IMG/VR virus record: IMGVR_UViG_3300009285_005282
Coordinates: 55,737 to 119,736 of that record
Reading direction: 5' to 3' (one strand)
Length of the DNA: 64,000 bases
Source: a virus
Numbering within the stretch: position 1 is the stretch's first letter; every line of letters begins with the position of its first letter. Made by a program: the position numbers and the translations under genes. Under the pieces are notes generated by a model. That model searched no databases. It was not told the DNA's origin and saw only the letters and a program-made list of their open reading frames with translations. Positions 24,019 through 50,322 of the stretch are shown here, piece by piece.

Positions 24019-25878
24019 GTGTTCGGGTCAACCCCAGCGCCAACGCCGACAACGACGAGTGCCCGTCTCGAAGGGCGTATCCGCGGTTCCCTCACGGGTG
24101 TGCGGTACCCCGACCCGTTCTTCGACCTGGCGCACACCTACCTGCCAACCTCGATCCTGGCGTTGTTTCGTTGGTGCAGGTACTACTACCTCACCTCCCC
24201 GCTCATCGCCGCGGCGGTGGACAAGCTCGCTGAGTACCCCATTACCGCGTTGGAGTTCACCGGTAGCAGCACGGAGGTGCACCGGCTGTGGGAGGCGTAC
24301 TTCGAGGACGACCTGCACCTTCGGGAGACGTTGGTCGATATCGGCGTGTTCTACAACTGCTATGGCAACACCATCGGCTCCTTGCACTTTCCAGCCACTA
24401 AGTGGTTGGTGTGTGAGAACTGCCACCACGAGGAACCAGCAACCGCAGCCAAGTACGACTACCGGGGCTGCAAGTTCCATCTGAAGTGCGCGCAGTGCGG
24501 GCACAACGGTCCCGCCGAGGTGCGTGAACGCGCGGTCAAGACCACCAAGGGAGCGCGACTGCTGCTGTGGAACCCGGAGGACATGGAGGTCCGCTACAAC
24601 GAGTTCACGGGTCACTCCACCTACTACTACCGTATCCCGGCCTACCTGCGCACCGCTGTGCGGCTCGGACGGCGGGACATCGTGGACCACTCCCCCCAGG
24701 TGTTCCTGGATGCAGTGCGGGAGGAGAAGGCGGTGGTGCTCAACCCGGAGAACGTGGTGCATCTCCGTCGTCCCTCGATCATGACCGGGCAGTTGAACCG
24801 CGGGTTGGGCATTCCGCTGGTGCTCCCGGTGCTCAAGAATAACTTCTACCTCCAGATTATGCGCAAGGCGCAGGAAGCTGTGCTTGCCGAGCGGTTGGTG
24901 CCCCTCAACATCCTGTTTCCAACCCAGTCCGCGCCGGGCGTGAACCCCTACGAGCTCATGGACCTGAGCCGTTGGCGGGACCAGGTCAACGAGGAAGTCA
25001 ACCACTGGCGCCGTGATCCTAATTACATACCAGTATTACCACTACCAGTTGGCCACCAAATGATCGGCGGGGATGGCCGGGCGCTACTGCTCTACAACGA
25101 GATGCGCTCCGAAGCGGAGACCATCTTGGTGGGAATGGGCATCCCGCCAGAGCTCGTTTTTGGGGGGTTGTCCTGGAGTGCTTCGAACGTCAGCCTGCGG
25201 ATGCTGGAGAACCGATTTCTGCGGTACATCGCCGGGCTGGAGCAGCTACTCAACAGTTTCGTCATCCCCCGTACCGCCGCCCACATGGGCTGGCCCGCGG
25301 TACGGGCGCGGTTCCGACCGTTCAAGATGGCTGACGATCTGCAGCGGTCGGCGTTCCTGTTCCAGCTCAACCAAGCCAAGCTGGTGAGTGACACCACCAT
25401 GCGGCGGGAGACCAACCTCGATCCGGACACCGAGGACGAGCGGCTCAAGAAGGAGGTCAAGTCCAGACTGCACGGGGTGGAAGAACAGCAGATGGCCGAG
25501 GCGCGTATCTCTGGGCAAGTTGGGGTGCTCACCGCCAAGTACCAGGCAAAGGCCCAACAGGTCATGGCGGAGGAGCAACGTCAGATGCAGTCGGGCACCT
25601 ACGGCGCTGCTCCAGGAGAGGAGGGGGCTGGGATGGGACAGGAGGCGGTGGCCCCCGTCGCTGCTCCGGCGGGCCCAGTGCCGCAGATCCTACAGCGGCT
25701 ACAGGGGCTGTCCCCGGAAGCGCAGCAGCAGGTGTTGCAACGGATAGGTCAACAAAACCCCGAGCTGGCCAGCAGCCTGGCGCAGCAGCTTCAACCGGCC
25801 TCCACACCTGCCAGTGACAGCGCGGGCGCTCCACTTCCGGAGCAGCTCCCGCCGAGACGGCAAGCGCAGCTCATCTGA
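24019..25878 (+). CDS. Portal protein
   Basis: RYYY.TSPLIAAAVDKLAEYPI, YGN, VVHLRR, GIPLVLPVLK, ILVGMGIPPELVFG; Q/P-rich tail. Confidence 0.7.
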   Translation: MFGSTPAPTPTTTSARLEGRIRGSLTGVRYPDPFFDLAHTYLPTSILALFRWCRYYYLTSPLIAAAVDKLAEYPITALEFTGSSTEVHRLWEAYFEDDLHLRETLVDIGVFYNCYGNTIGSLHFPATKWLVCENCHHEEPATAAKYDYRGCKFHLKCAQCGHNGPAEVRERAVKTTKGARLLLWNPEDMEVRYNEFTGHSTYYYRIPAYLRTAVRLGRRDIVDHSPQVFLDAVREEKAVVLNPENVVHLRRPSIMTGQLNRGLGIPLVLPVLKNNFYLQIMRKAQEAVLAERLVPLNILFPTQSAPGVNPYELMDLSRWRDQVNEEVNHWRRDPNYIPVLPLPVGHQMIGGDGRALLLYNEMRSEAETILVGMGIPPELVFGGLSWSASNVSLRMLENRFLRYIAGLEQLLNSFVIPRTAAHMGWPAVRARFRPFKMADDLQRSAFLFQLNQAKLVSDTTMRRETNLDPDTEDERLKKEVKSRLHGVEEQQMAEARISGQVGVLTAKYQAKAQQVMAEEQRQMQSGTYGAAPGEEGAGMGQEAVAPVAAPAGPVPQILQRLQGLSPEAQQQVLQRIGQQNPELASSLAQQLQPASTPASDSAGAPLPEQLPPRRQAQLI

Positions 25879-25884
25879 TACCTG

Positions 25885-25924
25885 GCTAAAGAAGCGGGCG
25901 GGGAGGCCAAAGCGCTCCCCGCCC
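25885..25924 (-). terminator. Hairpin terminator between portal and micro-ORF unit
   Basis: gggcggggag...ctccccgccc; minus strand continues GCTTCTTTAGC. Confidence 0.6.
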
Positions 25925-25937
25925 CAGTCGGTCTGCA

Positions 25938-26015
25938 CTAGCGCAGCCATTCTCCGGCGAGCTCAGCGATCCCCAACAGTAGGGTCGCGCCGAGCGCCAG
26001 GAGAAACAGCTCCAC
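25938..26015 (-). CDS. 25-aa hydrophobic peptide
   Basis: GTG overlaps previous TAG; (M)ELFLLALGATLLLGIAELAGEWLR. Confidence 0.35.
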   Translation of the reverse strand: MELFLLALGATLLLGIAELAGEWLR

Positions 26016-26101
26016 TAGCAGCAGGCCAACTGTTCATCCACATCCCCCTCGATGTCTTCGAGGGGGTCGTCCCCGTAGGGACGGCCGCAGCAACTCAACA
26101 T
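26015..26101 (-). CDS. 28-aa acidic CC...CC peptide
   Basis: GGAGGT RBS; MLSCCGRPYGDDPLEDIEGDVDEQLACC. Confidence 0.4.
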   Translation of the reverse strand: MLSCCGRPYGDDPLEDIEGDVDEQLACC

Positions 26102-26143
26102 GGGACCTCCATACCGGCAGTGGTTGTTTCCGCCAGTTATGTC

Positions 26144-26170
26144 CTTATAGCAACCCCGGGTGCCAGTTTG
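26144..26170 (-). promoter_or_regulatory. Leftward promoter CAAA-N17-TATAAG
   Basis: Minus strand CAAACTGGCACCCGGGGTTGCTATAAG, same spacing as the 21008 copy. Confidence 0.6.
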
Positions 26171-26287
26171 TTCCGGTAGCGAGATGCTGTTATAGTGGCC
26201 AAGCAGGCTCCGGAGACGGGCACTACGGTCCCCGTTCAGAGATGGAGACGGTCATGAGCTACGGAATCCACGATCACGAGGTGTGCA

Positions 26288-29200
26288 ATGGCGCGGCTTG
26301 ACCCTAAGGAGAGCTACGAGGCGCTCAAGGATGGGGTGAAGGAGGCTATCTCCAAGACGTTCCCGCACGTGGGGAAGGTCAACACGTTGGAGTTGGAGGG
26401 CATCGACATCCCCGACGAGCTTTCCAGCAGCGACTACGCGGCGCAGAAGCAGGCCAAGCTCAACGAGCGCACCTTCGGTATCCCGGTTCAGGCCACGATG
26501 GTGCTCCGGGAGAACGCTACCGGCAAAGTGCTCGACCGGTCCGTGGTCAAGATCGCCACGTTGCCGAAGATCACCGACCGCTACTCGTACATCACCGCGG
26601 GTACGGAGTACCAGGTGGACAACCAGTGGCGGTTGCGCCCCGGGGTGTACACCAAGGTCAAGCAGAACGGTGACCTGGACTCCTTCTTCAACATCAAGGG
26701 GCGCCCGCTGCACGTCGGGTTCGACCCCAAGACCAGAAAGTTCGATTTTCAGATCGGCGGTGCCGCTCCGCCGCTGTACCCGCTCATGAAAGCGCTTGGT
26801 GTGAGCGACGACACTTTGGAGCGGCAGTGGGGCACGGACATCCTGGCCGCCAACCGAGTGGACACGCGGGGCAAGCCCCACAACCTGCAACGAACGGTTA
26901 TCGACATCGCGCAACGGCTCGATCCTCGGGCGGAGGTTGGGTCCTACGAGCAGGCGGCCTCGGTCATTCGAGCCAACCTAGAAAGCTCGGCGCTGCACCC
27001 GGAGGTCACCCAGCGGACGTTGGGGAAGTCCATCGACCGTATCACCCCCGAGGCGATGCTGCTCTCCACCGGACGGCTGTTGGGGATCGCGAAGGGGAAG
27101 GAGCGGGAGGACGTCCGTGACTCTCAGTTGTTCAAGGACCTGCACAGCACGGAGGACTTCGTCAAAGAGCGCATCACGGGACACGCCAGTGTTATCGCAC
27201 GGCGGGTGGGGAATAACCTGGACCGTAAGGGAAAGATCCGGGAGATCGTCGTCCCGGACGTCTATGACCGCCCCATCCGCGAGTTCTTCGGCAAGGTGTC
27301 GCTGGCCAACTCGGCCGCGCAAACCAACCCGTTACGAATGATCGGCGGGCAGATGCGCACCACCATCGCTGGCGAGGGTGGGGTGGCCGACGCCAACCGC
27401 ATCACCGAAGACGCCAAGTTGGTGGACCCTAGCCACTTCGGAGTGCTGGACCCGCTGCACACGCCGGAAAGTTCAGCCACTGGTGTGTCCTTACAGCTCG
27501 CGCTTGGCGCCCGCAAGCAGGGTAACCGCGTGGTCGTCCCTCTGATCGACGTCAAGGATGGAAAAACCAAGCTGGTGGACACCTCCGTGATGTACGACTC
27601 GACCGTCGCGTTACCGGACTCGGTCAAGAAGCAGGGCGACAAGTTCGTCCCCGTATCCGGGTCCAAGGTCGTGGCGAGTGTGCCCGGCAACGCCATGCTC
27701 CCGGTAGCGATGAAGGACGTGGACTACATCGTTCCGCGCAGCGGGCAGATGTTCTCGATGGCAACCAACCTGGTGCCCTTCATCAACAGCGACTCCCCGA
27801 ACCGGGCGACGATGGCTGGACGCCACATGGAGCAGGCCATCCCGGTGGTGAACAGTGAGCCCCCGCTGGTGCAAAGTATGTTGGGTTCGGTCTCCATGGA
27901 CACGGTCATCGGCCGCTTTGCCTCCACACGGGCGCCATTGGACGGGAAGGTCACGAAGATCACTGCGGATCACATCACCGTGGCCGACGCGGACGGAGTG
28001 GAGAAGCATATCCCCGTCTACAGTCACTTCCCGCTCAACGACAAGAAGGGCTATATCCACAGCACCCCGGTGGTCAAGGTCGGGGACACCGTGAAAAGCG
28101 GTCAGCTCCTGGCGGACAGCAACTTCACGAAGGGCGGCGTGTACGCACCAGGTACGAATCTTAGAACCGCGTATATGACGTGGGCCGGAAGGAATTTTGA
28201 GGATGGAGTAGTTCTTAGCGAAACAGCCGCCCAGAAGCTCGCCAGCGCGCACATGTACAAGAAGGGGCTGGCGACGCGAGACCTGGAGCTCCCTGGCAAG
28301 AAGAAGTATCACGCCTACTACCCGTTGCAGAAGGAGCAGCTGGAAAAGTTGGATGACACCGGCGTGGTCCGGGTCGGGCAGCGGGTCAAGCCCGGCGACA
28401 CCCTGGTGGCTGCGCTCGCAGAGCGAACGCTTACCACGGAGGAGCAGCGGCTCAAGCTGCTGCACAACAGCCTGGTCAAGCCCAAGAAGGATAAAGCAGT
28501 CACTTGGGACGAGGACTACGAGGGGGAAGTCGTCGAGGTGCATCGCACCCCCAAGCGTGTGCAAGTCCACGTAAAGACTGTGGAACCGATGGAGATAGGG
28601 GACAAGCTCTGCTACGACGAACAGACAGATGTCCTGACCCTAACTGGGTGGAAACCCGTGTCCGAGGTGACATGTGAGGACCTTGTGTGCTGCCTGGTTG
28701 GGGAGGAGGTTGTCTACCAGCACCCCATAGCGGTCTTCTCCTATCCCACCGGCGGCCGAATGTACGTGATCCGTTCCCAGCAGGTAGACCTGTTCGTTAC
28801 CGCGGCGCATCAGATGTACGTGCGCTTACGCGGGGCACAGCAGTATCAGTTACTGCCCGCAGAGTCTCTTTTCGGCAAGAGGGTGCGTTACCGCAAGGAC
28901 GGTGTGTGGCGGGGGGAACACCGGCAGAGCATCACGCTTCCAGCGGTGACGGTTCCGGATAGACGTTACAAACTCGGTCAGCGGGACACCGCGCCTCTAA
29001 CGCTGGACATGAGCACGTACCTGCTATTGCTTGGTGCGTTCTTGGCTGACGGAAACTGCGTGTGCATTCCAAACAGCGGAACCTACGGCATCGAGTTCAG
29101 CAAGGTACGGGAACCTAACCGAGCCGAGCTGCGTGCGGCGTTGACCACGGCGGGGATCTCGTGGACGCCAGCTAGCAACAACACGAAAACGCGGCTTCAT

Positions 29201-32200
29201 TCGGTTACGTTGCTTCACCATTTCCAGCAGTTTGGGCATGCTGCGGATAAGTTCATACCGGACGCCATGTTCGGTCTTCCCCCGGAGCAACTCGCGGTGC
29301 TGTTCCATTGGCTGTTCACGTGGGGGGATGGGCACACCAAAAACGGTAAACCTGTTTCTCAAAGTACGGTATCCCCTCGTTTAGCGGACGGTCTGCAGCG
29401 TTTGGCGCTGCACTTGGGAATGGCCGCGAACGTTACCGTGCTTCACGACGCGGGGTTGACGACCATCAAGGGGCAAGAGTGCCATGTTCAAAAAACCTAC
29501 GATGTGCGCATGGTCACAACGAAGCTGCACCCGCAGGTCAACCACGGGCACGTACATCAACAGCGTGCGCAAACTGAGGAGATCGTTGAGGACTACGACA
29601 AGCCAGTTTACTGCGTTATGGTACCAGAGCACGTCATCTACGTCCGTCGTAACGGCAAGCCGGTGTGGAGCGGGAACAGTGGTCGCCACGGCAACAAGGG
29701 AATCACGACCCAGATTCTCCCAGATGCGGAAATGCCCCATGATAGGGAGGGACGCCCAATGGAGATCCTGCTCAACCCCATCGGGTTGGCCGGCAGGATG
29801 AACGTGGGGCAGATTCTGGAGACCGCGGCGGGAAAGCTCGCCGAGAAGACGGGGCAGACCTACCAGGTCTCCAACTTCACCAGCACGGACAACCTGACCG
29901 ACGTGCAGAACGCGCTCAAGAAGGCCGGCATCTCGGACAAGGAGGACCTGATCGACCCCAATACCGGCAAGGTCATTCCTCAGATCCTGGTGGGGAAGCA
30001 GCAGATCATCAAGCTGGAGCACCAGGTAGACAAGAAGATGCTCTCCCGAAGTCGAGACGCCTACGACCACAACCTCGTACCCCGAGGTGGTGGAAAGCAC
30101 GGCGCGCAGTCCTATGGAGCATTGGGGCTGTACGCGCTGTTGGCGCACGGCTCCCGCGCCAACATCCGAGAAGCGCAGACGTGGCGGTCGGACCGGGCGC
30201 AGGGCGGCGACACCGACGAGCTCTGGGGAGCGCTGCAATCTGGCGAGCTCCTCCCACCCCCGCGAAAGACCTTCGCGTACCGGAAGTTCAACGCTTACCT
30301 GAACACCTTGGGGGTGAACACCGAGAAGGACGGAAACTCGCTGACCCTGGTGCCGATGACCGACAAGCAGGTTCTGGAGATGTCCAACGGCGAGCTCACC
30401 GACGCGGGGAGGGTGCTGCGGATGAAGAGCCTAACGCCGGAGCCAGGGGGGCTGTTCGACGAAAAGATCACCGGTGGCTTGTCTGGTCAGAAGTGGGCGC
30501 ACCTCACCCTTACCCACCCAGTCCCCAACCCGTTGTTCGAGAAGGCGGTCATGAGCCTGGCTGGAATCCGCGGTCCGCAGTTCGATTCGCTGATCCAAGG
30601 GCAGAACGGAGTGACCGAGCAGGGAGCGATCGTCGGTCCGGGGGTGCAGGGTGCGCTCTACGGCCCCCAGTCGATCGAACGTTTGCTGTCCAAGGTGAAC
30701 GTGGGCACGGAGTTGGAGCGGGAGACCGCACGACTGCCTCGGCTCAAGGGGCAGCTGCTCAATGAAACGGCGCGCAAGGTAAAGTACCTACGGGCGCTGC
30801 AGAAGGCCAACCTGACTCCGGTCGACGCCTATATGACGAAGCACGTTCCAGTGCTGCCCCCCGCCATGCGCCCGGTGTCGGTGATGGATGACGGGTCGTT
30901 GCAGACGGACGACCTCAACCAGATCTACAAGTCGCTGGCGTTGGTGAACCAGCAAGCTGGCGCCTTTCCCGAGGGGACGCCGTGGTCGCTCAAGGCGCCA
31001 GTCGCGGCGAGCGTGTACGACCACGTGAAGTCCCTAGCCGGTCTCGGGGGCTCGCTCAACCGCAAGCACCCGGGCATCCTGGACATCATCGCTGGGCGTA
31101 ACAGCCCGAAGGAGGGCTACGCGCAAGCGGTGCTCATCAAGCGCAAGCAGGACCTTACCGCACGCAGCACCATCGTTCCCGACCCGGGGCTGGCGTTGGA
31201 TGAGGCGGCGCTGCCCCGCAAGCTCGCCAAGGAGATGTACAAGCCCTTCATCGTGGCGGAGCTGCGGCGGGCGACCGGGCGCAGCCCCTTGGAGGCCAAG
31301 GAGCTGATTGACAAGGATGACCCGCTTGCAGTGAGCGCACTGGACCGGGTGGTACAGCAGCGGCCTGTCCTACTGAAGCGGGACCCCGTGCTGCACAAGT
31401 ACGGTGTGCAGGCGTTCAAGCCGCGACTCACCGACGGGCGAGCAATCCAGATACACCCGCTGGTGTGCAGCTCGTACAACGCTGATTTCGACGGGGACGC
31501 CCAGGTAGGAGCGGTGTTTGCTTTCCTCCCAAATGCGTTATATGATGCAGAATGTGGCTTCTGGTCACAGCGGGAGGTAGGGATGACGGCGCGATTTCAA
31601 GAGACAGTGAGCTATGACACCGAGGGTGGTCATATGGTCATATGTGACCTGAAAGACTTCCCCCACCTGGAAGCGAAGACCACTCGGGGGCATATCGACT
31701 ACCACCCGGTGCCCGTGGGGGTCAAGGTGGTAGCCCTCGACGAACGGGACGGGCCGGTGTTGGCGGAGGTGACCGGCTGGTCACTCCATCGGAAGCGGCG
31801 GGTAGAGATTGTAACATTGGGTAGCGGGCGGCAAATCGTCACCGACGACGACGAGCGTGCCGTGTACGGGGTTGACGCGTCCTCACTGGAATGGTGTCGC
31901 CGTCGCCCTCGGGAAGCGCGGGACCAGTTTGTCCCGGTCGTGGATCAGACACCCGTGTCAGACGTGGTCCAGTGGAAGACCTGGCCAGTAAGATCCAGTA
32001 GTCCTCGGCTGCACGCTCAAGTGCCGGGAAACTTCGACTTTGGCTATTTTCTCGGCGCCATCGTGGGCGACGGGTGGGCAGCCCGCGTAGACGGGGACCC
32101 ACATGACGTGTGCCTGGGTTCCTCGATTGCGGAAGTCAGCAAGCGCTGGACTGACGCGGCGCAGGTGCTGTTTCAAGAGCCAGTGGCCTCGTGCTGGATA

Positions 32201-35026
32201 TGGAGAGCACACGGGAAGCTAGGGGCCTCGGAGGGTAGCGGGTCGGTGACAATTTCGTGTCGGGACCTCGCACGCTTTGTGGATGACGTGGTCGGACACG
32301 GCGCGGAGAACAAGCACCTGCCCCCGTTCTTTCGTACTGCACCTCGGGAGTTTGTGGTTGGCCTGCTGAGCGGCTTGTGGGATACGGACGGGTCAGTGTC
32401 GTTCTCCGAAGCTAAGAACAAGCCGCAGTTCATGTGCAGCTACTCTTCCAACAGCCTACAGCTTGTTCAGGAGATTCAGAGTCTTCTACGGACGTGGGAG
32501 ATTAGCTCGACGGTCACCCCCACGAAAACTCCTAAGGGTACACCCGCGTGGGTGCTCGGCGTGTCCACCGTCGACCTTTTCAAGTCTGATTTGGAGCTAA
32601 GGCTAGCCCACCCCGACAAGGCGACGGTGCTCCGACGGTTCTTTGACGGACCTCTTCCGGACGACCGCATGGCCTACAGCCGCAACCGTTTGGTGCCGCT
32701 CCCCGCCGCCTTAGCCCGAGAGCTGCGAGTGCTGGTGGGGTGCCACGAGCGTACGAGCATGTACAGCACGCTGAGCAAGGCCGTACAACGACAGTACATA
32801 TCCAAAGTCATGGCCGAAGACGTGCTACGGGTGGTGCACAAGTGCTCCCATCCGTTGTTCGAGCGATGGCGACAGGTAGTGCAGTTGAAGGGTGTGCACT
32901 TTGAGAGAGTGGAAAGTGTCGTAACCACAACTGTCGAAGAAGACGGGTACGACCTTACTGTTCCCGGCTACGAGACGTTCATGAACGTCGACGGGGTTGT
33001 ACTGTCCAATACCATGTCCGCCTTCGTCCCTATATCGGCAGAGGCAGTCTCCGAAGCGCGCAACATGTTTCCCTCCTCCAGCCTTCTCAGCCCCTCTACC
33101 GGCAAGCTCGCCTTCGCTCCTTCCCATGAACAGCAGGTGGGGCTGTTCATGGCCAGTCAGGTAAACGCGGGGTCGGTGAAGCACTTCACGGACCGTGCAG
33201 CGCTGGACGTAGCGTTCAATGCGGGGAAGGCCAAGTTGAACGACGTCGTGACCGTCGGGTCCGTGAGAACGACCCTCGGACGGCTACGCATCAACGACCA
33301 CCTCCCAACCTCAATGCAGGGAGGGCGCATCCTGACCGATCTCGGGTATCACCTTACCAACAAGGAACAGTCAGGGCTGTTCGCCGAGCTGGTCAAGACG
33401 GACCCGAAAGGGTACGCCGTGGCGGTCAACAAGCTCAAGGATCTCGGCAACCACGTGGCCTCCACCGAAGGGTTCACTTTTGGGCTGGAGGACATCAAGG
33501 TCCACCGGGGTATTCGAGATCCCATCCTGCACGCCGCAGAACGGCAGACAGCGGGGCTGGACCTGACCAAGCCGAAGGACCTGCAGAAATACGTCGACGT
33601 CTACGGCAAGGCTATGACCCAGCTCGACACCGCATTGTTAGAACAGGCGCGGAGGGGCTCGGGGCAGCTCGACCGGTTGGAGGTCTCAGCGGGTATCAAG
33701 GGCAAGGCGTACCGACAGCTCACTGGAGCGCCAGTGCTGTTCGTGGACGGCAAGGGAGACGTGGTGCCCAACCCAGTCCGCCGTTCCTACTCCGAGGGGC
33801 TGACGACCACCGACTACTGGGCGGCCACCAGCGGCGGGCGGAAGGGCATCATCCAGAAGGTGCAGTCGGTAAGCGAGCCGGGGTACATGACCAAGATGAT
33901 GACCAACTCCACCATCGACCAGATCGTGGACACTGACGACTGCGGGACCGAACGGGGCATTGCCCTTTCGGTGACCGAGCCGGACATCATTGGGCGGTAC
34001 ACCACCGCTCCCATCAACATGGCGCCGGGTAAGTCGCTACCTGCGGGAACGCTGCTCACCCCCGATCTGGTCACGCGCATCCGCAACAACCGGGGCAACG
34101 CCAAGGTCGTCGTGCGCTCTCCGCTACGGTGTAACCACGCCACCGGACTCTGCGCTCGGTGTGCGGGGCTGAACGAACACGGTCAGCCGCACGATCTTGG
34201 CACCAACGTGGGGGTGCTCGCCTCTCAGGCCATAGGTGAGCGCGGCACGCAGCTCGCAATGCGGGCCTTTCACGCAGGTGGAGTCTTCGAGCCCGGCGGT
34301 GCTTCCTCCCTCACCGCGGGGGGTATGGACCGCGCACTTGACCTATTGTACCTCCCGCAGAAGGTCAAGGGCTCAGCCGTACTGGCACCTCTTTCAGGCA
34401 CGGTAACTCAGGTACGCAAGGACCCTGCTGGAGGGGTACGGGTTGCGGTCCGTTCCGGCGCGGCGGCAACCGAGGTGTACATCCCGCAAGACCGCGCCCC
34501 CTTGTCGACGCTGCGCGCTGGCGCCACGGTAAAGCGCGGCGACTTGCTCTCCTCCGGACCGGTCAACCCGCACGAGCTTTTACCACTAGCAGGGGTGAAC
34601 CGTACGCAGGGACACTTGGCAGAGGAGCTGCATGACCTGTATGGCAACTACGGCATCCGTCGGAGGCACTCCGAGCTCCTAGTGCGGGCGGTCACAGGGG
34701 TGACCAAGATCGAAGACCCGGGGGACCATCCGGGATTCCTGCGTGGTGACTACGCCAACGTGGCCGCGGTGCAGCAGTGGAACAAGCAGAACAAGACCGG
34801 ACGACCTGTCCAGCACGCGCCGGTGCTGCGTGGCGTCAAGCAGATTCCCTTGGACGTGCAGGAGGACTGGCTTGCACGGTTGAACCACAACCGTCTCCAG
34901 AGTACGCTGGTGGAAGCGGCGCAGCAGGGATGGTCGTCCGATCTGCACGGGACGCACCCCATCCCGGGGATTATTTACGGTGAGGAGTTCGGGAAAGGAA
35001 CTCCGGACAAACCATGGAGGTACTAG
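26288..35026 (+). CDS. rpoBC: Fused beta/beta-prime RNA polymerase with two inteins (about 2052 aa after splicing)
   Basis: Beta: HTPES, NFEDG, GDKL|SGRHGNKG, LNPIGLAGRMNVGQ, KLEHQVDKK. Beta-prime: PVLPPAMRP, RDPVLH, NADFDGD, GRKG, GERGTQLAMRAFHAGG. Confidence 0.95.
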   Translation: MARLDPKESYEALKDGVKEAISKTFPHVGKVNTLELEGIDIPDELSSSDYAAQKQAKLNERTFGIPVQATMVLRENATGKVLDRSVVKIATLPKITDRYSYITAGTEYQVDNQWRLRPGVYTKVKQNGDLDSFFNIKGRPLHVGFDPKTRKFDFQIGGAAPPLYPLMKALGVSDDTLERQWGTDILAANRVDTRGKPHNLQRTVIDIAQRLDPRAEVGSYEQAASVIRANLESSALHPEVTQRTLGKSIDRITPEAMLLSTGRLLGIAKGKEREDVRDSQLFKDLHSTEDFVKERITGHASVIARRVGNNLDRKGKIREIVVPDVYDRPIREFFGKVSLANSAAQTNPLRMIGGQMRTTIAGEGGVADANRITEDAKLVDPSHFGVLDPLHTPESSATGVSLQLALGARKQGNRVVVPLIDVKDGKTKLVDTSVMYDSTVALPDSVKKQGDKFVPVSGSKVVASVPGNAMLPVAMKDVDYIVPRSGQMFSMATNLVPFINSDSPNRATMAGRHMEQAIPVVNSEPPLVQSMLGSVSMDTVIGRFASTRAPLDGKVTKITADHITVADADGVEKHIPVYSHFPLNDKKGYIHSTPVVKVGDTVKSGQLLADSNFTKGGVYAPGTNLRTAYMTWAGRNFEDGVVLSETAAQKLASAHMYKKGLATRDLELPGKKKYHAYYPLQKEQLEKLDDTGVVRVGQRVKPGDTLVAALAERTLTTEEQRLKLLHNSLVKPKKDKAVTWDEDYEGEVVEVHRTPKRVQVHVKTVEPMEIGDKLCYDEQTDVLTLTGWKPVSEVTCEDLVCCLVGEEVVYQHPIAVFSYPTGGRMYVIRSQQVDLFVTAAHQMYVRLRGAQQYQLLPAESLFGKRVRYRKDGVWRGEHRQSITLPAVTVPDRRYKLGQRDTAPLTLDMSTYLLLLGAFLADGNCVCIPNSGTYGIEFSKVREPNRAELRAALTTAGISWTPASNNTKTRLHSVTLLHHFQQFGHAADKFIPDAMFGLPPEQLAVLFHWLFTWGDGHTKNGKPVSQSTVSPRLADGLQRLALHLGMAANVTVLHDAGLTTIKGQECHVQKTYDVRMVTTKLHPQVNHGHVHQQRAQTEEIVEDYDKPVYCVMVPEHVIYVRRNGKPVWSGNSGRHGNKGITTQILPDAEMPHDREGRPMEILLNPIGLAGRMNVGQILETAAGKLAEKTGQTYQVSNFTSTDNLTDVQNALKKAGISDKEDLIDPNTGKVIPQILVGKQQIIKLEHQVDKKMLSRSRDAYDHNLVPRGGGKHGAQSYGALGLYALLAHGSRANIREAQTWRSDRAQGGDTDELWGALQSGELLPPPRKTFAYRKFNAYLNTLGVNTEKDGNSLTLVPMTDKQVLEMSNGELTDAGRVLRMKSLTPEPGGLFDEKITGGLSGQKWAHLTLTHPVPNPLFEKAVMSLAGIRGPQFDSLIQGQNGVTEQGAIVGPGVQGALYGPQSIERLLSKVNVGTELERETARLPRLKGQLLNETARKVKYLRALQKANLTPVDAYMTKHVPVLPPAMRPVSVMDDGSLQTDDLNQIYKSLALVNQQAGAFPEGTPWSLKAPVAASVYDHVKSLAGLGGSLNRKHPGILDIIAGRNSPKEGYAQAVLIKRKQDLTARSTIVPDPGLALDEAALPRKLAKEMYKPFIVAELRRATGRSPLEAKELIDKDDPLAVSALDRVVQQRPVLLKRDPVLHKYGVQAFKPRLTDGRAIQIHPLVCSSYNADFDGDAQVGAVFAFLPNALYDAECGFWSQREVGMTARFQETVSYDTEGGHMVICDLKDFPHLEAKTTRGHIDYHPVPVGVKVVALDERDGPVLAEVTGWSLHRKRRVEIVTLGSGRQIVTDDDERAVYGVDASSLEWCRRRPREARDQFVPVVDQTPVSDVVQWKTWPVRSSSPRLHAQVPGNFDFGYFLGAIVGDGWAARVDGDPHDVCLGSSIAEVSKRWTDAAQVLFQEPVASCWIWRAHGKLGASEGSGSVTISCRDLARFVDDVVGHGAENKHLPPFFRTAPREFVVGLLSGLWDTDGSVSFSEAKNKPQFMCSYSSNSLQLVQEIQSLLRTWEISSTVTPTKTPKGTPAWVLGVSTVDLFKSDLELRLAHPDKATVLRRFFDGPLPDDRMAYSRNRLVPLPAALARELRVLVGCHERTSMYSTLSKAVQRQYISKVMAEDVLRVVHKCSHPLFERWRQVVQLKGVHFERVESVVTTTVEEDGYDLTVPGYETFMNVDGVVLSNTMSAFVPISAEAVSEARNMFPSSSLLSPSTGKLAFAPSHEQQVGLFMASQVNAGSVKHFTDRAALDVAFNAGKAKLNDVVTVGSVRTTLGRLRINDHLPTSMQGGRILTDLGYHLTNKEQSGLFAELVKTDPKGYAVAVNKLKDLGNHVASTEGFTFGLEDIKVHRGIRDPILHAAERQTAGLDLTKPKDLQKYVDVYGKAMTQLDTALLEQARRGSGQLDRLEVSAGIKGKAYRQLTGAPVLFVDGKGDVVPNPVRRSYSEGLTTTDYWAATSGGRKGIIQKVQSVSEPGYMTKMMTNSTIDQIVDTDDCGTERGIALSVTEPDIIGRYTTAPINMAPGKSLPAGTLLTPDLVTRIRNNRGNAKVVVRSPLRCNHATGLCARCAGLNEHGQPHDLGTNVGVLASQAIGERGTQLAMRAFHAGGVFEPGGASSLTAGGMDRALDLLYLPQKVKGSAVLAPLSGTVTQVRKDPAGGVRVAVRSGAAATEVYIPQDRAPLSTLRAGATVKRGDLLSSGPVNPHELLPLAGVNRTQGHLAEELHDLYGNYGIRRRHSELLVRAVTGVTKIEDPGDHPGFLRGDYANVAAVQQWNKQNKTGRPVQHAPVLRGVKQIPLDVQEDWLARLNHNRLQSTLVEAAQQGWSSDLHGTHPIPGIIYGEEFGKGTPDKPWRY
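28610..29677 (+). mobile_element. Intein 1 (356 aa) with LAGLIDADG endonuclease in beta GDKL|SGRHGNKG
   Basis: Begins CYDEQTDVLT, TAAH block B, LGAFLADG, ends VWSGN with +1 Ser. Confidence 0.92.
31499..33010 (+). mobile_element. Intein 2 (504 aa, Ala1) with LAGLIDADG endonuclease right after NADFDGD
   Basis: Removing AQVG...VLSN restores NADFDGD-TMSAFVP; FLGAIVGDG, LSGLWDTDG; YDLTVPGYETF block F. Confidence 0.88.
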
Positions 35027-35028
35027 CA

Positions 35029-35430
35029 ATGGATCGCGCTTCGGAGATCATGTACCGAGCGTTCTTCGACGAGTTGGGGCACATCGAACGACACCGGCTG
35101 TCCAAACTGGCGGTAGATGCAGCAGCGGCTGCACAGCTCCCCGGTTTCATGAGCCGTGTCGGGCAAGGGTTGGTCAACCTGGGACAGCACGGGGCCGGTG
35201 CGGCAGGTAAGGCGATTCGTGCTGGGTACACCAACGCCGCCCAAGGCTTTGCAAAAGCCAACCCCGACGTGGGCTGGGTAGGACGGAACTGGCAGGGCGT
35301 GAAGGGCGCGCTACGAACGCCCGAAGGGGCAGCTGCCGCTCTCGGCGCCGGTGTGCTCGGCACGACCGCAGTCGGTGCTGGTGGGCTGGGCTACTTGCAC
35401 GGACGCAGCACAGCGGCCCCGCGGTACTGA
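35029..35430 (+). CDS. Glycine-rich protein with AFFDEL...SKLA leader (cargo family)
   Basis: GGAGG RBS; C-terminal ALGAGVLGTTAVGAGGLGY. Confidence 0.7.
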   Translation: MDRASEIMYRAFFDELGHIERHRLSKLAVDAAAAAQLPGFMSRVGQGLVNLGQHGAGAAGKAIRAGYTNAAQGFAKANPDVGWVGRNWQGVKGALRTPEGAAAALGAGVLGTTAVGAGGLGYLHGRSTAAPRY

Positions 35431-36557
35431 TGCCCCGCTCCCGCGCCATGTCCCCCACGCAGCGGGGGACCCAGACCGTTGCCATCGAGCAAGGTCAGGT
35501 CATCAATGTCGATGTAGCGCGCTTCACCGTGGACGTGCGGACGAGCCGTACCCATCGGCTATTGCTCGACTTGAAGGTCGGAGCACCCTATCTGCACTAC
35601 AACGCCGGTGAGGGGTTCTCGGTCATGCCCGAAGTAGGAGCGCTGGTGCAGGTCTGCCTGCCGAGTGACGACGTCCCCTTCATTCTCTGCTTCGTGACCG
35701 CGTTCGAGCGTGCGGACACGGACACCTCCAGCGAGCAGTCCCAGGCGACTTTTCGTGCTGGCCGCCCCGACATGGAACAGGGGGACATGCTGCTCCGTAC
35801 CAGGGATGGCAACCAACTCTGGCTGCACCGGGGCGGGGTCGTGGAGATCGGGGCCACTCGGTTGGCGCAGCGAGTGTACGTCCCACTTACGAACCTTATC
35901 CGGGACGTGTTCGAGAACTACGAAGCCCTCTCTACCGCCGGGGAGATGTACTGGACCACCACCAGGTCCGACAGCGACCCGGATGATACGGCACGGGCGG
36001 TGTTCACGGTTGGGGTGCGGGACGCCGCGCAGGACTCCGCGAGCTCGGTGATGGTCAAGCTCGGCCACGTCGACGACACCATACGTGTTCGCTGCGTGGT
36101 AGCTCCCAACAGTATCGACAGCCGAACCGGCGAGGTGGACGGTGACGCCGTGTACGAGCTGACCATCAACGAGGACGGCGACGTTGCGGTCACTACGGCC
36201 GGCGACGTCACCGCCGACGTGGACGGCGAGTTGGAGCTCACTGTCTCCGGTGAGGCCAACGTCACCACCGGGAACCGCACCGACACCGTCAACGGTAACC
36301 TCAGTGTGCAGGTGAGCGGCGAACACGAGCTGCGCGCTGCTACGAGTCGAGAGACGGTGAGCGGGTCAAAGGTGCTGGACAGCCCGTTGGTTTTGCTTGG
36401 CGGTCCCGGCGCCCATGATGCGATGATGCTGGTGACAAGCTCGGTCATTGCCTTCATGGCGGCCCACACGCACGACGTGCTGGGCTCGGCCACTGGCCCC
36501 CCGAGCCCTTCGGTCACCCCGGCGCAGATGTCCGCACGTCGTGTAAAGGGGGTGTGA
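35430..36557 (+). CDS. Baseplate central spike (gpV/gp5-like)
   Basis: OB-fold (MPEVGALVQV), V/T/G/D beta-helix repeats, C-terminal AHTH metal-binding tip. Confidence 0.75.
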   Translation: MPRSRAMSPTQRGTQTVAIEQGQVINVDVARFTVDVRTSRTHRLLLDLKVGAPYLHYNAGEGFSVMPEVGALVQVCLPSDDVPFILCFVTAFERADTDTSSEQSQATFRAGRPDMEQGDMLLRTRDGNQLWLHRGGVVEIGATRLAQRVYVPLTNLIRDVFENYEALSTAGEMYWTTTRSDSDPDDTARAVFTVGVRDAAQDSASSVMVKLGHVDDTIRVRCVVAPNSIDSRTGEVDGDAVYELTINEDGDVAVTTAGDVTADVDGELELTVSGEANVTTGNRTDTVNGNLSVQVSGEHELRAATSRETVSGSKVLDSPLVLLGGPGAHDAMMLVTSSVIAFMAAHTHDVLGSATGPPSPSVTPAQMSARRVKGV

Positions 36558-41990: not shown

Positions 41991-44900
41991 ATGTCCACGC
42001 AGGACCTAGAACAGTACCAACGCGCCATCAGCGCCCTTCACTCCCAGGAGCTCGACCAGACGCTGGAAGACCAGATCGACGCCGAGATGGCTCGGTTGAA
42101 CGAAGAGGACTTCAGCGACGCCGCGATGGAGGAGGCGGTCTTTCCGCAGCTTGTCTCAGCTCGTGCAGAGGCGGAACAGGTTCACGTGCTCCCCTCGGAG
42201 TTTACAGAGTTCGCTCAGCGCATCCCGGTTGGCGGAGAGATCACCAGGTTCAGCTTCGAGGGGAGGCGTTACCTCAAGCAGCCGTACGATACCAGCGCGA
42301 ATCGTATCCTACTAAAATTTTCTCGTCAAAGTGAGAAAAGTCTAGTAGAGCACTCCATGGTCCTTCTTGCTGACGGCAGCGAGACGCCAATCTCGGAGGT
42401 GCGGGTTGGCGACTGGGTGGTGACCATGCTCCCCGACGGAGCACACACCAGCGTCAGCCGAGTGACGTGGAAGTCCGAACGTTACCGGAAACCCTGTGTG
42501 CGTATCCGTACCCAGCGATGCCTGTCCGCCGACGCGGCGGTGACGCACCCCTTTCGCCGATGGGGGCGCTGGACACCCGCGGGGGAGCTCAAGATTGGGG
42601 ATCGTGTTGCCACGGTGCGCCGTGCTGGTCTTTTCACGTCCGAAGCACCAGCACTAGCTGACAACCACATCAAGTTCGTTGCGTACATGATCGGGGATGG
42701 TTGCTGCGGCTGCTCGAACAATTTTTCCTTTACCCAGCAACCTGGTTTGGTGCTGGACGACTTCCTCACCATTGCGCACCAAGAGCAGTGGCCAGTCCGA
42801 ATAGCCGATAAGAGCGGGACACGCGCCAAGCAGGTACACGTTGGCAAGATTACAACCGCACGCACATGGCTGAAGGAGGGGGGCTTGTGGTTGTGCCGGT
42901 CTGCCGATAAGGCTCTTCCGGCGTGGGTGTGGGACCTGCCCCGAACGCAGGCCGCGCTCTTTCTGAATCGGCTATGGTCCACAGACGGGAGCGTTCTTCT
43001 GCACGGTCACCAGTATGAAATTGTCTACTCCTCCATTTCTCGCACGTTGGTCAGGGGGGTGCAGCGTCTGCTGTGGAAGTTTGGCATCCCGTCACGGATA
43101 CGCGAGCTACACCCACAAGTGTACCGAGGGTCGAATAAATGTGCGTACATTCTTGCAGTACAAACACAACCGGGGATAGTGCAGTTTCTCACCGAGGTGG
43201 GGGCACTTGGTAAGTCGGAAGATATTCCACTTCCCTCGATGGCACCAAACAACAACCAAGACACGTTCCCGGTGGAGATCACACAGGACCTACACGCTGT
43301 CAACGCCAGTGGTGGCAGCGGGGGCCGCGGACGCAACGCCACGTACTCGTTGAGCTCGGCGGGTTTGACCGCGACACCAAGTTACCCACCGTCACGTAGG
43401 CGGTTGCAGGAGTATGTTGATTTCTTTCGTGGTCACCCGCGTTACGACCAGAACCTGGTGGACCAGCTTGCCGCGCATCTTGACACGGACCTGTACTGGG
43501 ATCGGGTTATTGGCGTGGAGGACATTGGGGAGCAGTGGTGTTACGACATCGCGATTGAAGAGGATGAGAGCTTTGTCACGGACGGGCTGGTAACACACAA
43601 TTCAACCCTACTAGGTAACAAATTACTGGCTTACGCGGCGATCATCCCCGCGTTCGCCGGGCTGTACGTTTCCTCCTCGGCCACCCAAGCGCAGGTGTTC
43701 TCGGTTGACCGGTTGAAGGACCCCATCGAGCTGTCGCCCGAGCTTGGGCGGTTGGTCCACAACAACCTGTCGCAGAACGTTCTGTTCAAGCAGTTCCGCA
43801 ACCGTTCCCAGATCCGTATCCGGTACGCTTTCCTACATGCCGACCGCACCCGCGGTATCCGGGCGGACGCGGTGACGGTTGACGAGATCCAGGACATCCT
43901 TTTCCACAACATCCCCGTTATCGAGCAGTGCGCCAGCCACTCCGAACTGAAACTGTTTTGCTACAGCGGCACCCCTAAGAGCCTGGACAACACCATCGAA
44001 GTGTACTGGGCCAACCACTCCACTCAGAACGAGTGGGCAGTGCCCTGTGAACGTCACGGCGTCCCTGGGAGACCGAGCTCATGGCACTGGAACATCCTGG
44101 GCAGGGCTAACGTTGGCAGGACCGGACCTATCTGCGCCAAGTGCGGTGCGCCGATTGACCCCATGCACCCCCGGGCACAGTGGGTCAGCCTGCAACCACG
44201 GACGGACGTCAATCAGGACCGGGTGACATTCGAGGGCTACCACGTCAGTCAGCTCATGGTGCCGTGGGTGGTTGCCAACGCCGCGACCTGGCATGAGTCG
44301 ATCATCTTTCCGTTGGAGACCTATGAAGTTGCTCGGGTCAACAACGAGGTGTTCGGGCTGTCCTACGACTCAGGCACACGCCCCGTCACCCGTAAGCACT
44401 TGGAAGCGTGCTGCCGCGACGAGATCAGCATGGACCGCGTGCGGGAGCTCGCGCAGGAGGCGCAGCAGTACGGTGGGGTCGCGGCGGGTATCGACTGGGG
44501 TGGGGGCGGTGACCAGGGGGCTTCGTACACCGTGCTCTCGCTGGGCGGGTACTTGGGGCATGAGTTTCAGATCTTCTTTCTACATCGGTTTATCGGTGAG
44601 GACCTGGACCCCCATCGGCAGCTGCTCAAGATCGCCCAGCTGCTCAACGATGTGCAGTTCCGTATCTGCGGCTGCGACTACGGCGGGGGCTTTCACCCCA
44701 ACGCGTGGCTAGAACGTAACTTTCCCCGCAAGGTGCTGCGGTACCAGTACGCGGGCAACCCCAAGGCGAAGGTCAAGTGGGAACCCGCGCTGGGTAGGTT
44801 CATCCTGCACCGCACCGAGGTGATGAGCGATGTGTTCAACGCGCTGCGCAGCCGCCGGATCTGGTTGCCCCGAGTTGCGGAGTGCCGCTCCCCGTACTTG

Positions 44901-45089
44901 GAGGACGTCCTCAACATCTTCTCCGAGTACTCCCGGCTTACTAACATGACCCAGTACAAAATCAGCCCCGGCAAGTCCGACGACACATTGCACTCCATCC
45001 TGTACTGCCTTCTTGCCTCATTCGTCATCCGACGTCGGCTCGACCTGATCGTCCCGCTCAGCCCGTTGGATGTGCAGCTGCCTCAGTAA
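41991..45089 (+). CDS. terL: Terminase large subunit (gpA-like) with intein
   Basis: SRQSEK|ST Walker A, RTRGI, VDEIQD Walker B, SGTPK, GIDWGGG and DD..HS nuclease motifs. Confidence 0.85.
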   Translation: MSTQDLEQYQRAISALHSQELDQTLEDQIDAEMARLNEEDFSDAAMEEAVFPQLVSARAEAEQVHVLPSEFTEFAQRIPVGGEITRFSFEGRRYLKQPYDTSANRILLKFSRQSEKSLVEHSMVLLADGSETPISEVRVGDWVVTMLPDGAHTSVSRVTWKSERYRKPCVRIRTQRCLSADAAVTHPFRRWGRWTPAGELKIGDRVATVRRAGLFTSEAPALADNHIKFVAYMIGDGCCGCSNNFSFTQQPGLVLDDFLTIAHQEQWPVRIADKSGTRAKQVHVGKITTARTWLKEGGLWLCRSADKALPAWVWDLPRTQAALFLNRLWSTDGSVLLHGHQYEIVYSSISRTLVRGVQRLLWKFGIPSRIRELHPQVYRGSNKCAYILAVQTQPGIVQFLTEVGALGKSEDIPLPSMAPNNNQDTFPVEITQDLHAVNASGGSGGRGRNATYSLSSAGLTATPSYPPSRRRLQEYVDFFRGHPRYDQNLVDQLAAHLDTDLYWDRVIGVEDIGEQWCYDIAIEEDESFVTDGLVTHNSTLLGNKLLAYAAIIPAFAGLYVSSSATQAQVFSVDRLKDPIELSPELGRLVHNNLSQNVLFKQFRNRSQIRIRYAFLHADRTRGIRADAVTVDEIQDILFHNIPVIEQCASHSELKLFCYSGTPKSLDNTIEVYWANHSTQNEWAVPCERHGVPGRPSSWHWNILGRANVGRTGPICAKCGAPIDPMHPRAQWVSLQPRTDVNQDRVTFEGYHVSQLMVPWVVANAATWHESIIFPLETYEVARVNNEVFGLSYDSGTRPVTRKHLEACCRDEISMDRVRELAQEAQQYGGVAAGIDWGGGGDQGASYTVLSLGGYLGHEFQIFFLHRFIGEDLDPHRQLLKIAQLLNDVQFRICGCDYGGGFHPNAWLERNFPRKVLRYQYAGNPKAKVKWEPALGRFILHRTEVMSDVFNALRSRRIWLPRVAECRSPYLEDVLNIFSEYSRLTNMTQYKISPGKSDDTLHSILYCLLASFVIRRRLDLIVPLSPLDVQLPQ
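42339..43601 (+). mobile_element. Intein 3 (421 aa, Ser1) with LAGLIDADG endonuclease in terminase Walker A
   Basis: SLVEHSMVLLADG..., VTHPF, YMIGDG, LWSTDG, ends VTHN with +1 Ser. Confidence 0.9.
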
Positions 45090-45391: not shown

Positions 45392-46357
45392 TTATCCCGT
45401 TTCCCCCTTCGGTTTTTCACGCCACCCCGGACATTTTTCGTCCAGGACCATCTCAGCCAGGCGAAGTGCGGATTTTGCCGGACCGGGAGACCACAATGCG
45501 GTCCGCTGCTGAAAGTTGGCCGAGCGCGTCCAACAGACCGCGGAGTACGGGCAGGGACCATCCTTAGCCCACGTGCTGAACGCCCTTCCACCTTTGGGGT
45601 GCGAGGCGGCGTCGTACCGCATCAGTTCCACGCAGAGATCGTCCGACACTACCTCCCAATCGGCCATCAACACCATCTGAGGTGAGGGCAGCGCCGTAGC
45701 ACCTAACTTTGCGTAGTTGAGGTCCGCCTCAAGCAGGTTAGTCTCCTGCAGGTCAGCCTCGCGCAAGTCGGCTCTGGTCAAGCGCGCGAGTCGCAGGTCG
45801 GCCCCGCGCAGGTTGGCCCCCCGCAGGTCTGCCCTACGTAGGTCTGCTCGCTGTAGGTTCGCGCCACACAGTAGGGCTTTCACCAAGCGCGCTTCGGTCA
45901 AGTCGGCCCTGCGTAGGTCAGCCTCACGTAGATCGGCCCCATGTAGGTCAGCCCCATATAGGTTGGCCTCGCGAAGACTGGCCCCGCTGAGGCGAACCCA
46001 GTGTAGATCGGCTTCGTATAGGTTGGCCCCGCGTAGATTGGCCGCGTATAGATCGGCCTCGCGTAGATTGGCCCCGCGTAGACCGGCCCGGTGTAGGCTA
46101 GCCTCGCGAAGGTCGGCCCCGTGTAGGTCAGCCCCGCATAGGTCAGCCCAACGTAGGTTGGCCCCAAGTAGGTTTGCCCCGCTCAGGTCAGCCCCGCGTA
46201 AGTTGGCCTTGTAGAGGACAGCCTCGCACAAGCCGGCCCCGTGTAGGTTGGCTTCTTGGAGGTTTCGCGTCGCCCAGTTTGGAATTCCCTGATCGAGCTC
46301 CTCACGTTCCAGCCCTGTGAGCTCTCTCAATCCTTGCCCTGTCTGCTGTTCTGGCAT
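45392..46357 (-). CDS. Pentapeptide-repeat protein, copy A
   Basis: About 35-40 A[DN]Lxx repeats plus a unique ~95-aa C-terminal domain. Confidence 0.9.
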   Translation of the reverse strand: MPEQQTGQGLRELTGLEREELDQGIPNWATRNLQEANLHGAGLCEAVLYKANLRGADLSGANLLGANLRWADLCGADLHGADLREASLHRAGLRGANLREADLYAANLRGANLYEADLHWVRLSGASLREANLYGADLHGADLREADLRRADLTEARLVKALLCGANLQRADLRRADLRGANLRGADLRLARLTRADLREADLQETNLLEADLNYAKLGATALPSPQMVLMADWEVVSDDLCVELMRYDAASHPKGGRAFSTWAKDGPCPYSAVCWTRSANFQQRTALWSPGPAKSALRLAEMVLDEKCPGWREKPKGETG

Positions 46358-49525: not shown

Positions 49526-50322
49526 TGAACCCCATCGACCGCTTCCTCAGTAACGAACCGGAAGAGCAAGTCAAGACGGCGGGCTTCTGGGGCTCCTTGG
49601 GAAAGTTCGTCGAGAAGAACCAGGGCGTTACCGCTGCGGCGCTCACTGTCGCCGCCCCGGCCGTTGTCCTGGGTGTCCAACACGGTCTTGGGCAGCTCAA
49701 ACAGGTGGTGGACCGCAGCCGTGGCTTCAAGGCCATGATGGCTTCGGGCGGGCAGGAACTTCAGGACATGCCTGCTGCACGGGCGAAGTCGTTGTACAAC
49801 ACGTTGCACGTGGTAGCACCCACCCTGGCGCAGGACCCCAACATCGCCAAGTCATGGGTCAAACGTATGGCGTACCAAGAGGAGTACGTCGACCCAAAAA
49901 CCCTCAGCGACTTGGCAACCGCTGAGAGCCGCCTTGCCAAGGGGCTTGAGTATCCTGGTGCCCAGGTGGGACTGGCGCTTGGACAGCAGGTGGGTGCCTA
50001 CGACTTCACGCGTGCCCCCCGTGAGCAACGGGCAGCTCAGGAGCACGGGTGGAAGGGTCAGCAGGAGGTTCGGCAAGCAACTGAGCATGGGTGGAAGGGT
50101 AATCTAGAAGCTCGACAAGCGACTGAGCACGGGTGGAAGGGTCAGCAGGAAAGTCGGCAAGCAACTGAGCATGGGTGGAAAAACACGATAGTGGACCACG
50201 AGCACGCGCTGACCCGTATGCAGTACGACCAGATGCTGGACAAGCTGCGGTATGGTGCGCCCACCGAGCAAAATCCGAAGCCCGGGTACTTTCCAGACCC
50301 TGGCTACAACCGCACTCCATGA
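49525..50322 (+). CDS. Virion protein with leader ending VKTA and a 14-aa tandem repeat
   Basis: MNPIDRFLSNEPEEQVKTAG; hydrophobic segment; 4x EHGWK. Confidence 0.65.
   Translation: MNPIDRFLSNEPEEQVKTAGFWGSLGKFVEKNQGVTAAALTVAAPAVVLGVQHGLGQLKQVVDRSRGFKAMMASGGQELQDMPAARAKSLYNTLHVVAPTLAQDPNIAKSWVKRMAYQEEYVDPKTLSDLATAESRLAKGLEYPGAQVGLALGQQVGAYDFTRAPREQRAAQEHGWKGQQEVRQATEHGWKGNLEARQATEHGWKGQQESRQATEHGWKNTIVDHEHALTRMQYDQMLDKLRYGAPTEQNPKPGYFPDPGYNRTP
50032..50184 (+). repeat. In-frame 42-nt tandem repeat (x4)
   Basis: gagca[ct]gggtggaa at 50041, 50083, 50125, 50167. Confidence 0.9.

Follow-up and report, generated by a model that had tools for sequence, protein, structure and literature searches.

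What does a phage gain when it encodes a bacterial-type RNA polymerase (RNAP) as one 2912-aa chain, and how could a chain interrupted inside its own active-site motifs become an enzyme? The open reading frame (ORF) that raises this question lies at 26288..35026 (+) of a 64,000-nt stretch of DNA from an uncultured groundwater virus, which we call the window and which makes up the last 64 kb of the 119,736-base IMG/VR record IMGVR_UViG_3300009285_005282 (estimated 68% complete). We are close to certain that this ORF encodes a two-barrel phage polymerase of the bacterial beta/beta' type and that it belongs to the family related to the polymerase of Salmonella phage Arash. Within that family the feature is the fully fused, double-intein variant, and it is common in metagenomes. 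As a whole, the locus is best explained as encoding the sole RNAP of the phage, an enzyme that is matured by two splicing events, does without alpha, depends on sigma and is probably packaged, and we consider this explanation likely.

The ORF is one continuous frame with an ATG start, the sequence GAGGTG 5 nt ahead of the ATG and a stop codon at 35024-35026. Pfam analysis of the translation yielded domains in the cellular order, with the beta domains Rpb2_3 and Rpb2_6 (Rpb2_6, E 1.3e-52) followed by the beta' domains Rpb1_1, Rpb1_2, Rpb1_3 and Rpb1_5 (Rpb1_2, E 4.1e-21), and beta' chains in the PDB matched the frame at E about 1e-92. The NCBIfam rpoB and rpoC models matched at E values of 1e-98 to 1e-128, yet their scores stayed under the cut-offs (428 bits against 963.5 for rpoC_TIGR and 346 bits against 896 for rpoB NF001616), which marks the product as a homologue and not an equivalog. 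Pfam also reported LAGLIDADG_3 at residues 2021-2093, together with weak Hom_end and Intein_splicing signals. Two inserts were defined by alignment with 45 relatives, most of which have neither insertion, and after their removal the catalytic motifs GDK..GRHGNKG, NFEDG, NADFDGD and GERGTQLAMRAFH were all intact, with the Mg-binding NADFDGD of beta' at residues 1731-1737. Subtracting both inserts leaves 2912-356-504 = 2052 aa; the closest intein-free relative (locus L008) is 2053 aa long and 63.2% identical over 2046 aligned positions. Megablast of the polymerase gene against the phage collection returned zero matches, and no RNA dataset was listed as containing the gene. The parts of the precursor are as follows, each with the evidence that defines it.

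26288..35026, plus strand: whole ORF, fused beta-beta' RNA polymerase precursor, 2912 aa (frame, Pfam, NCBIfam)
26288..28609, plus strand: extein 1, residues 1-774, N part resembling beta, which stops at the GDKL of the beta catalytic motif (Pfam, profile alignment)
28610..29677, plus strand: intein 1, residues 775-1130, 356 aa, splitting GDKL from SGRHGNKG (alignment with relatives, translation, weak Hom_end)
29678..31498, plus strand: extein 2, residues 1131-1737, C part of beta, fusion joint and N part of beta' as far as NADFDGD (profile alignment)
30299..30358, plus strand: fusion joint, residues 1338-1357, peptide LNTLGVNTEKDGNSLTLVPM (profile alignment)
31499..33010, plus strand: intein 2, residues 1738-2241, 504 aa, between NADFDGD and TMSAFVP (Pfam, alignments, fold model)
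33011..35023, plus strand: extein 3, residues 2242-2912, C part of beta' including the trigger-loop motif GERGTQLAMRAFH (Pfam, PDB matches, alignment)

To map the joint, a profile of the phage family was aligned to Salmonella RpoB and RpoC. RpoB 1050-1338 aligned to residues 758-1346 and RpoC 142-1347 to residues 1418-2889, and therefore the C-terminus of beta, with its C-terminal helix, runs directly into the N-terminus of beta'. A sequence-only reading of this window had proposed a phage-encoded, single-chain beta/beta' polymerase of about 2052 aa after splicing, fused near 30300-30350 at the peptide LNTLGVNTEKDGNSLTLVPM, and our mapping agrees on each of these counts, the peptide itself occupying nt 30299-30358. 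Alignment to the enterobacterial subunits further revealed what the phage chain has kept and lost. The beta lobe is reduced (beta 230-422 in E. coli numbering is about 68 aa here), SI2 and SI3 of E. coli are absent from the aligned chain, and RpoC 1-141, including the zinc-binding element, has shrunk to about 70 aa, with no N-terminal Zn-binding CxC...CxxC of beta' visible in residues 1347-1417 of the translation. The beta flap-tip region aligns with Salmonella RpoB 831-933 and the beta' clamp helices with RpoC 243-341; in bacteria, these two regions bind sigma.

With which partners would such a chain work? No sigma or alpha gene was found in the 64-kb window, as the sequence-only reading had reported, and a search of the whole 119.7-kb record yielded no alpha and one sigma-like frame, which lies outside the window.

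G000:C1:33372-34130, same record, outside the window, about 48 kb upstream of the RNAP gene: sigma-70-family gene, 252 aa (Pfam, Arash gp10 match, fold search)

The 252-aa product carries Pfam Sigma70_r3 at 35.7 bits (cut-off 25.3), with r2 (E 0.026) and r4 (E 0.006-0.02) below their cut-offs, and is the orthologue of Arash gp10 (31.6% identity, E 1.6e-30). When its structural model (predicted local distance difference test, pLDDT, 74.6) was searched with Foldseek, all 50 of the matches listed were sigma factors, aligned over about 230-300 columns. Five near-complete relatives were consistent with this picture: a sigma orthologue was present in 5/5, alpha (PF01000, PF01193) was absent from 5/5 in a search whose controls were positive in 14/14 genomes, and each of the five had one beta' catalytic gene. 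For the second Arash sigma, gp196, no homologue was found in the genomes G000-G004, a result that is uninformative since the search had no positive control. The earlier proposal, of an enzyme possibly independent of alpha and sigma, divides into two. Its alpha half is supported by the record and the five relatives, and its sigma half is not supported, given the conserved gp10 orthologue and the aligned flap tip and clamp helices. Because the sigma gene is conserved and the flap-tip and clamp-helix regions are retained, we infer that transcription starts in a sigma-dependent manner, probably with the 252-aa factor. An enzyme that is both sigma-dependent and alpha-less is therefore what we expect with reasonable confidence. 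The lack of alpha may be tolerated because beta and beta' are covalently joined, in which case the link would take over the role of alpha as assembly scaffold.

The position of the gene bears on when the enzyme would be made. It is flanked by two genes for particle proteins.

24019-25878, plus strand: portal protein homologue (Arash portal gp204, 27% identity, E 2.5e-78)
35430..36557, plus strand: gp5-like central spike protein with a beta-helix at residues about 229-300 (T4 gp5 spike beta-helix match, E 6.5e-6)

This order is kept in relatives. Of 63 loci, 61 have the portal gene upstream and on the same strand, at less than 3 kb (30 loci) or at 4.5-7 kb (31 loci), and in all 57 relatives with enough flank the spike gene is found downstream. 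In the window, homologues of further Arash structural proteins follow the spike. The placement between portal and spike, within a block of virion genes, had been read from the letters alone, and the Arash gp204 and T4 gp5 matches confirm it. Since the gene sits in a late structural block, the enzyme is probably made late and packaged. Virion proteomics of Arash points the same way: according to the available text of the Arash paper, gp206 accounted for 3516 spectra in purified particles, more than any other protein, followed by 1210 for gp216 and 467 for the sigma factor gp10, and its authors suggest a role in early transcription for the virion polymerase (PMC10585845). By analogy with these homologues, the packaging that had been raised as a possibility is plausible, and we lean towards a virion-packaged enzyme. 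It would be enclosed in the capsid, delivered with the DNA and used to transcribe the early genes in the next host.

A real but unpackaged polymerase is the alternative that survives best, although we regard it as rather unlikely. The host RNAP would then read sigma-70-like early promoters, and the phage enzyme and its sigma would take over middle and late transcription. Candidate promoters do exist. TATAAG elements, often in the form TGgTATAAG, precede many minus-strand genes and stand 15-35 nt ahead of the ribosome-binding site and start codon, as at window positions 4921, 47434 and 48245 (minus strand) and at 11-29 kb of G000:C1, outside the window; of the 19 elements in the record, 18 lie on the minus strand, and CCTTATA/TATAAGG is the most enriched intergenic 7-mer. 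Judged by their letters, these TGnTATAAG-like elements are candidate promoters resembling the host sigma-70 type. The Arash authors, in the part of their paper available to us, also allow for carry-over of abundant enzymes into the virion preparation (PMC10585845). However, the total of TATAAG in the window is near chance (7 found, 4.2 expected, with 13 of 100 shuffles reaching 7), and only strand and position are notable. A place in the structural block, on the late strand in nearly all relatives, would ill suit an enzyme needed before the late genes, and the high counts in purified Arash particles extend to gp206, gp216 and sigma gp10 alike.

The two inserts stand inside active-site motifs, one between GDKL and SGRHGNKG and the other directly after NADFDGD, and the 2052-aa enzyme would arise only once both have been removed. 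Intein 1 looks canonical, that is, of class 1. It begins with Cys1 (Cys775), has T-A-A-H as Block B when read from the translation (the class 1 TxxH), contains two LAGLIDADG-like motifs and ends in WSGN (Asn1130) followed by Ser+1 (Ser1131), and its insertion is exact, with GDK..GRHGNKG contiguous in intein-free relatives. Its penultimate residue is Gly instead of His. The same site is also filled in the L039 group of relatives.

Intein 2 is a different matter. Its insertion is likewise exact and in frame, as intein-free alleles read DFDGD-TMSA. Folded with a 30-row alignment, it gave a confident AlphaFold model (pLDDT 87.4, predicted template modelling score 0.87) of a HINT domain with LAGLIDADG, and the best fold matches in the PDB were homing-endonuclease inteins, with TliVMA (E 1.5e-21) followed by PI-PfuI, PI-PkoII and PI-SceI. 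A search of the PDB by sequence yielded a marginal PI-PkoII match alone (E 0.81). The HINT fold, the exact insertion, the C-terminal Asn and a +1 nucleophile (Thr) are thus all in place, and the remaining residues are unusual. The first is Ala, Block B reads T-D-D-D with Asp in place of His10, position 4 of Block F is Asp, and the intein ends in LSN before Thr+1, so that the penultimate residue is Ser (Ser2240) and not His.

This pattern is shared. A database search with the intein 2 region found 223 proteins of 1601-5096 aa at E <= 1e-5, and of the best 120 nearly all have Pfam matches to both RNA polymerase domains and LAGLIDADG_3. We counted residues in 119 aligned copies. Position 1 is Q in 52, E in 17, A in 10, C in 7 and D in 6, with others in the remainder, and only 8 copies have Cys or Ser there. 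By comparison, His1834, Asp1855, Arg1857, Asp2222, Ser2240 and Asn2241 are invariant (119/119) and Thr2242 is nearly so (118/119); of these, Asp1855 occupies the Block B His10 position and Asp2222 position 4 of Block F. No column has Cys in at least half of the 119 copies, the maximum being 48 at residue 1786. The conservation across these copies argues for function rather than decay, as far as sequences can tell.

How does this compare with the three described classes of intein? In the available text of Tori et al., class 2 inteins have Cys+1 with Thr7 and His10 in Block B, class 3 inteins need the Cys at Block F position 4 together with His10 and may also have Thr+1, and His10 was essential in the inteins tested (PMC2807308). 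As in class 2 (KlbA-type) and class 3 inteins, to the extent that this text describes them, intein 2 does not start with Cys or Ser, and it shares Thr+1 with class 3. It departs from those two classes by combining Thr+1 with an Asp at both B:10 and F:4 and by having no conserved Cys. Expressed by class, it lacks the position-1 nucleophile of class 1, the Block B His10 of all three and the Block F position 4 Cys of the class 3 WCT. Judged by its residues, the intein 2 family fits none of the three classes, and because both the position-1 nucleophile and the Block B His are missing, as in nearly all of the 119 aligned copies, its route of splicing may be one that has yet to be described. That intein 2 does splice we consider quite likely. 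It forms a conserved element within an essential catalytic loop, and the residues by which the three described classes open their N-terminal junction are missing from it.

The opposite possibility, that loss of the splicing residues of intein 2 keeps the precursor from maturing and leaves an inactive copy or cleavage products only, we hold to be improbable. The residues themselves invite it, as Ala stands for Cys/Ser at position 1, Asp for a His10 that is essential where tested (in the available text of PMC2807308) and Ser for the penultimate His. Against this, the same residues are strictly kept in the 119 copies, which come from very diverse polymerases with long intact frames, the insert folds confidently as HINT plus LAGLIDADG, and the five near-complete relatives have only one polymerase gene each.

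A second type of allele occupies the same DFDGD site in some relatives (L015, L016 and L023). It is more canonical, with Ser1, S-E-D-H as Block B and a Trp-Asp end that is followed by Cys or Thr.

Could the gene be a host rpoB-rpoC operon that was taken up recently and then trimmed? Its domains are collinear with those of bacterial rpoB-rpoC, and the top NCBIfam rows are models of cellular fused beta/beta' proteins, PRK09603 and PRK14844, from Helicobacter and Wolbachia. The scores are far below the cut-offs of these models (477 bits against 5372 and 439 against 4632), and the cellular beta' sequences listed all share a similar identity of only about 25-29% with the phage protein. We then considered a tree of the C part of beta' (50 rows, 534 columns, quick IQ-TREE search), in which a long branch (support 100, length 1.18) set the 19 cellular rows apart, the fused family formed a clade of its own (support 97) and the Arash-type split forms formed another (99). 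Recent capture from a host therefore fits badly with the separate cellular group and the low identity. The sequence-only reading had favoured a streamlined capture of a host-type RNAP; this is not supported, for no nesting within a cellular clade was seen and the gene appears to lie in a deep phage clade apart from the 19 cellular beta' sampled. As the family also spans 71 viral loci with a guanine-plus-cytosine (GC) content of 44-64%, we give recent capture very little credence.

Lastly, an assembly chimera of separate genes, for which we found no point in favour, is scarcely credible, since four groundwater-metagenome runs (from one study that possibly includes the source sample) each cover 25500-35600 with one contig, 0 differences and no joint, 4 contigs on record encode the identical protein, and 61 other loci have the same single frame. 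The misassembly that the earlier reading had named as a concern was thus not seen.

The 71 related loci came from a scan of viral contigs. A complete single frame runs over the whole match in 61, of which 51 lack inteins (about 2060-2217 aa) and 10 owe a greater length to them; among the other loci, 9 are truncated at a contig end and 1 ends prematurely. Long contigs of the family measure 170-195 kb. The fully fused, single-chain layout is thus normal for a large group of phages and neither a one-off nor an artefact. Across this family, inteins occur at six conserved polymerase motifs, namely after TPE(S/G), before (F/Y)EDG, directly after GDK(L/M), after GRHGNKGIVT, after DFDGD and after the trigger-loop FH. 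Their spread is evident in the related loci L013, L016, L023 and L039, and L013 holds three inteins in a frame of 3371 aa.

Taken together, these results allow us to put forward, as a possibility that we hold tentatively, a more specific picture of the mature enzyme. It would be a minimal holoenzyme consisting of the 2052-aa chain and one small sigma, without alpha or omega, which is delivered by the virion and whose active site is completed only when a family of inteins splices by an undescribed route (no Cys/Ser1, Asp for His10, no Block F Cys, Thr+1 and the catalytic Asp always at -1). Several points weigh against the broader explanation, in addition to the carry-over that the Arash authors allow for. 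As intein 2 has neither a Cys/Ser first residue nor Block B His10, maturation of the active site is a predicted step. The record being 68% complete, an alpha gene or a second polymerase may lie in the missing part of this genome. The case for packaging comes from one distant relative, Arash, at about 30% identity, and packaging would be unnecessary if the host RNAP may read the early genes from the TGnTATAAG-like elements. The 19 cellular beta' sequences of the tree were picked by words shared with the query. If the picture is true, one chain plus sigma would be the simplest known bacterial-type polymerase that can still be aligned with cellular ones, which would make it useful for structural and mechanistic work and would bear on how beta, beta' and alpha became separate.

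Among known systems, the nearest named phages are Arash and the Vibrio phages D181, D148 and D69, at about 30-32% identity. Their polymerases are homologous to the one described here (E about 1e-101 for gp206 and 1e-43 for gp216) and share the same beta-beta' joint, a portal gene just upstream and an orthologous sigma. They differ in that beta and the N part of beta' form one chain (1525-1527 aa), whereas the C part of beta' has a gene of its own (about 606-609 aa). In Arash, the break in beta' comes about 84 residues after DYDGD and the 606-aa gene follows about 5 kb downstream; here the chain is unbroken and holds two inteins. Homology and adjacency to the portal gene therefore place our locus with the Arash-like clade, and its layout sets it apart, as the frame is single here and in 61 of the 71 loci. 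The Arash paper, in its available text, annotates the genes as beta and beta' and does not discuss fusion (PMC10585845). Literature searches, with subscription journals outside their coverage, found no paper that describes either a phage beta-beta' fused throughout or an intein at NADFDGD. The family is large (71 viral loci, and 223 intein-bearing proteins at E <= 1e-5), and in the literature searched it is touched on by the Arash genome paper only.

The cellular fused forms (PRK09603, PRK14844) resemble the phage chain in carrying beta and then beta' in one polypeptide with a joint at the same ends. They are longer (about 2840-2890 aa by profile length), and the phage chain, far below their cut-offs, is not a member. 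These cellular forms work with alpha2 and omega. Among the jumbo phages, the phiKZ-like and AR9-like RNAPs are also phage enzymes of the beta/beta' type without alpha, and one set is virion-packaged; according to the portion of the source available, they consist of four or five chains in two paralogous sets without sigma (PMC7824862), whereas the phage described here has a single chain in a single set, together with a sigma. The mReC phages of Weinheimer and Aylward (2020) are, in the available parts of that study, uncultured tailed phages whose beta and beta' genes branch deeply, and these genes are separate in 47/47 rows of one part of supplementary file 2; its main text mentions fusion for crAss phages only (PMC7481178). 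Single-chain polymerases that are carried in the particle and start infection are also described, in the sources as far as available, for crAss-like gp66, Thermus phage P23-45 and the N4 virion RNAP (vRNAP). The N4 vRNAP is T7-like, and the enzymes of crAss phages and P23-45 are two-barrel proteins that have diverged strongly; none of the three is readily alignable with bacterial beta/beta', whereas the phage chain here is.

Some relatives are filed under cellular names. A 174-kb contig sits in a 'Desulfatibacillum' bin (L079), and two proteins are labelled Eisenbacteria or Odinarchaeota (P0008, P0143). These relatives in bacterial or archaeal metagenome-assembled genomes look like phage contigs binned with cells and are weak hints at a host at best. 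The tree also places two shorter, beta'-only proteins within the fused clade, namely P0146, of 1036 aa and encoded on a contig of 184,783 nt, and P0139, of 1145 aa; such members may have split again or carry frameshifts.

Other genes of the window also carry inteins. The large terminase (1032 aa, 41991-45089, plus strand) contains one with a LAGLIDADG_3 domain and an Intein_splicing match, and a 1041-aa ORF at 50175-53300 (plus strand), a homologue of the Arash structural protein gp222, shows Hint and Intein_splicing signals, so that with the two in the polymerase at least four inteins lie within the 64 kb. Two tandem pentapeptide-repeat proteins of 321 aa each (45392-46357 and 46422-47387, minus strand) are encoded on the opposite strand inside the structural region.

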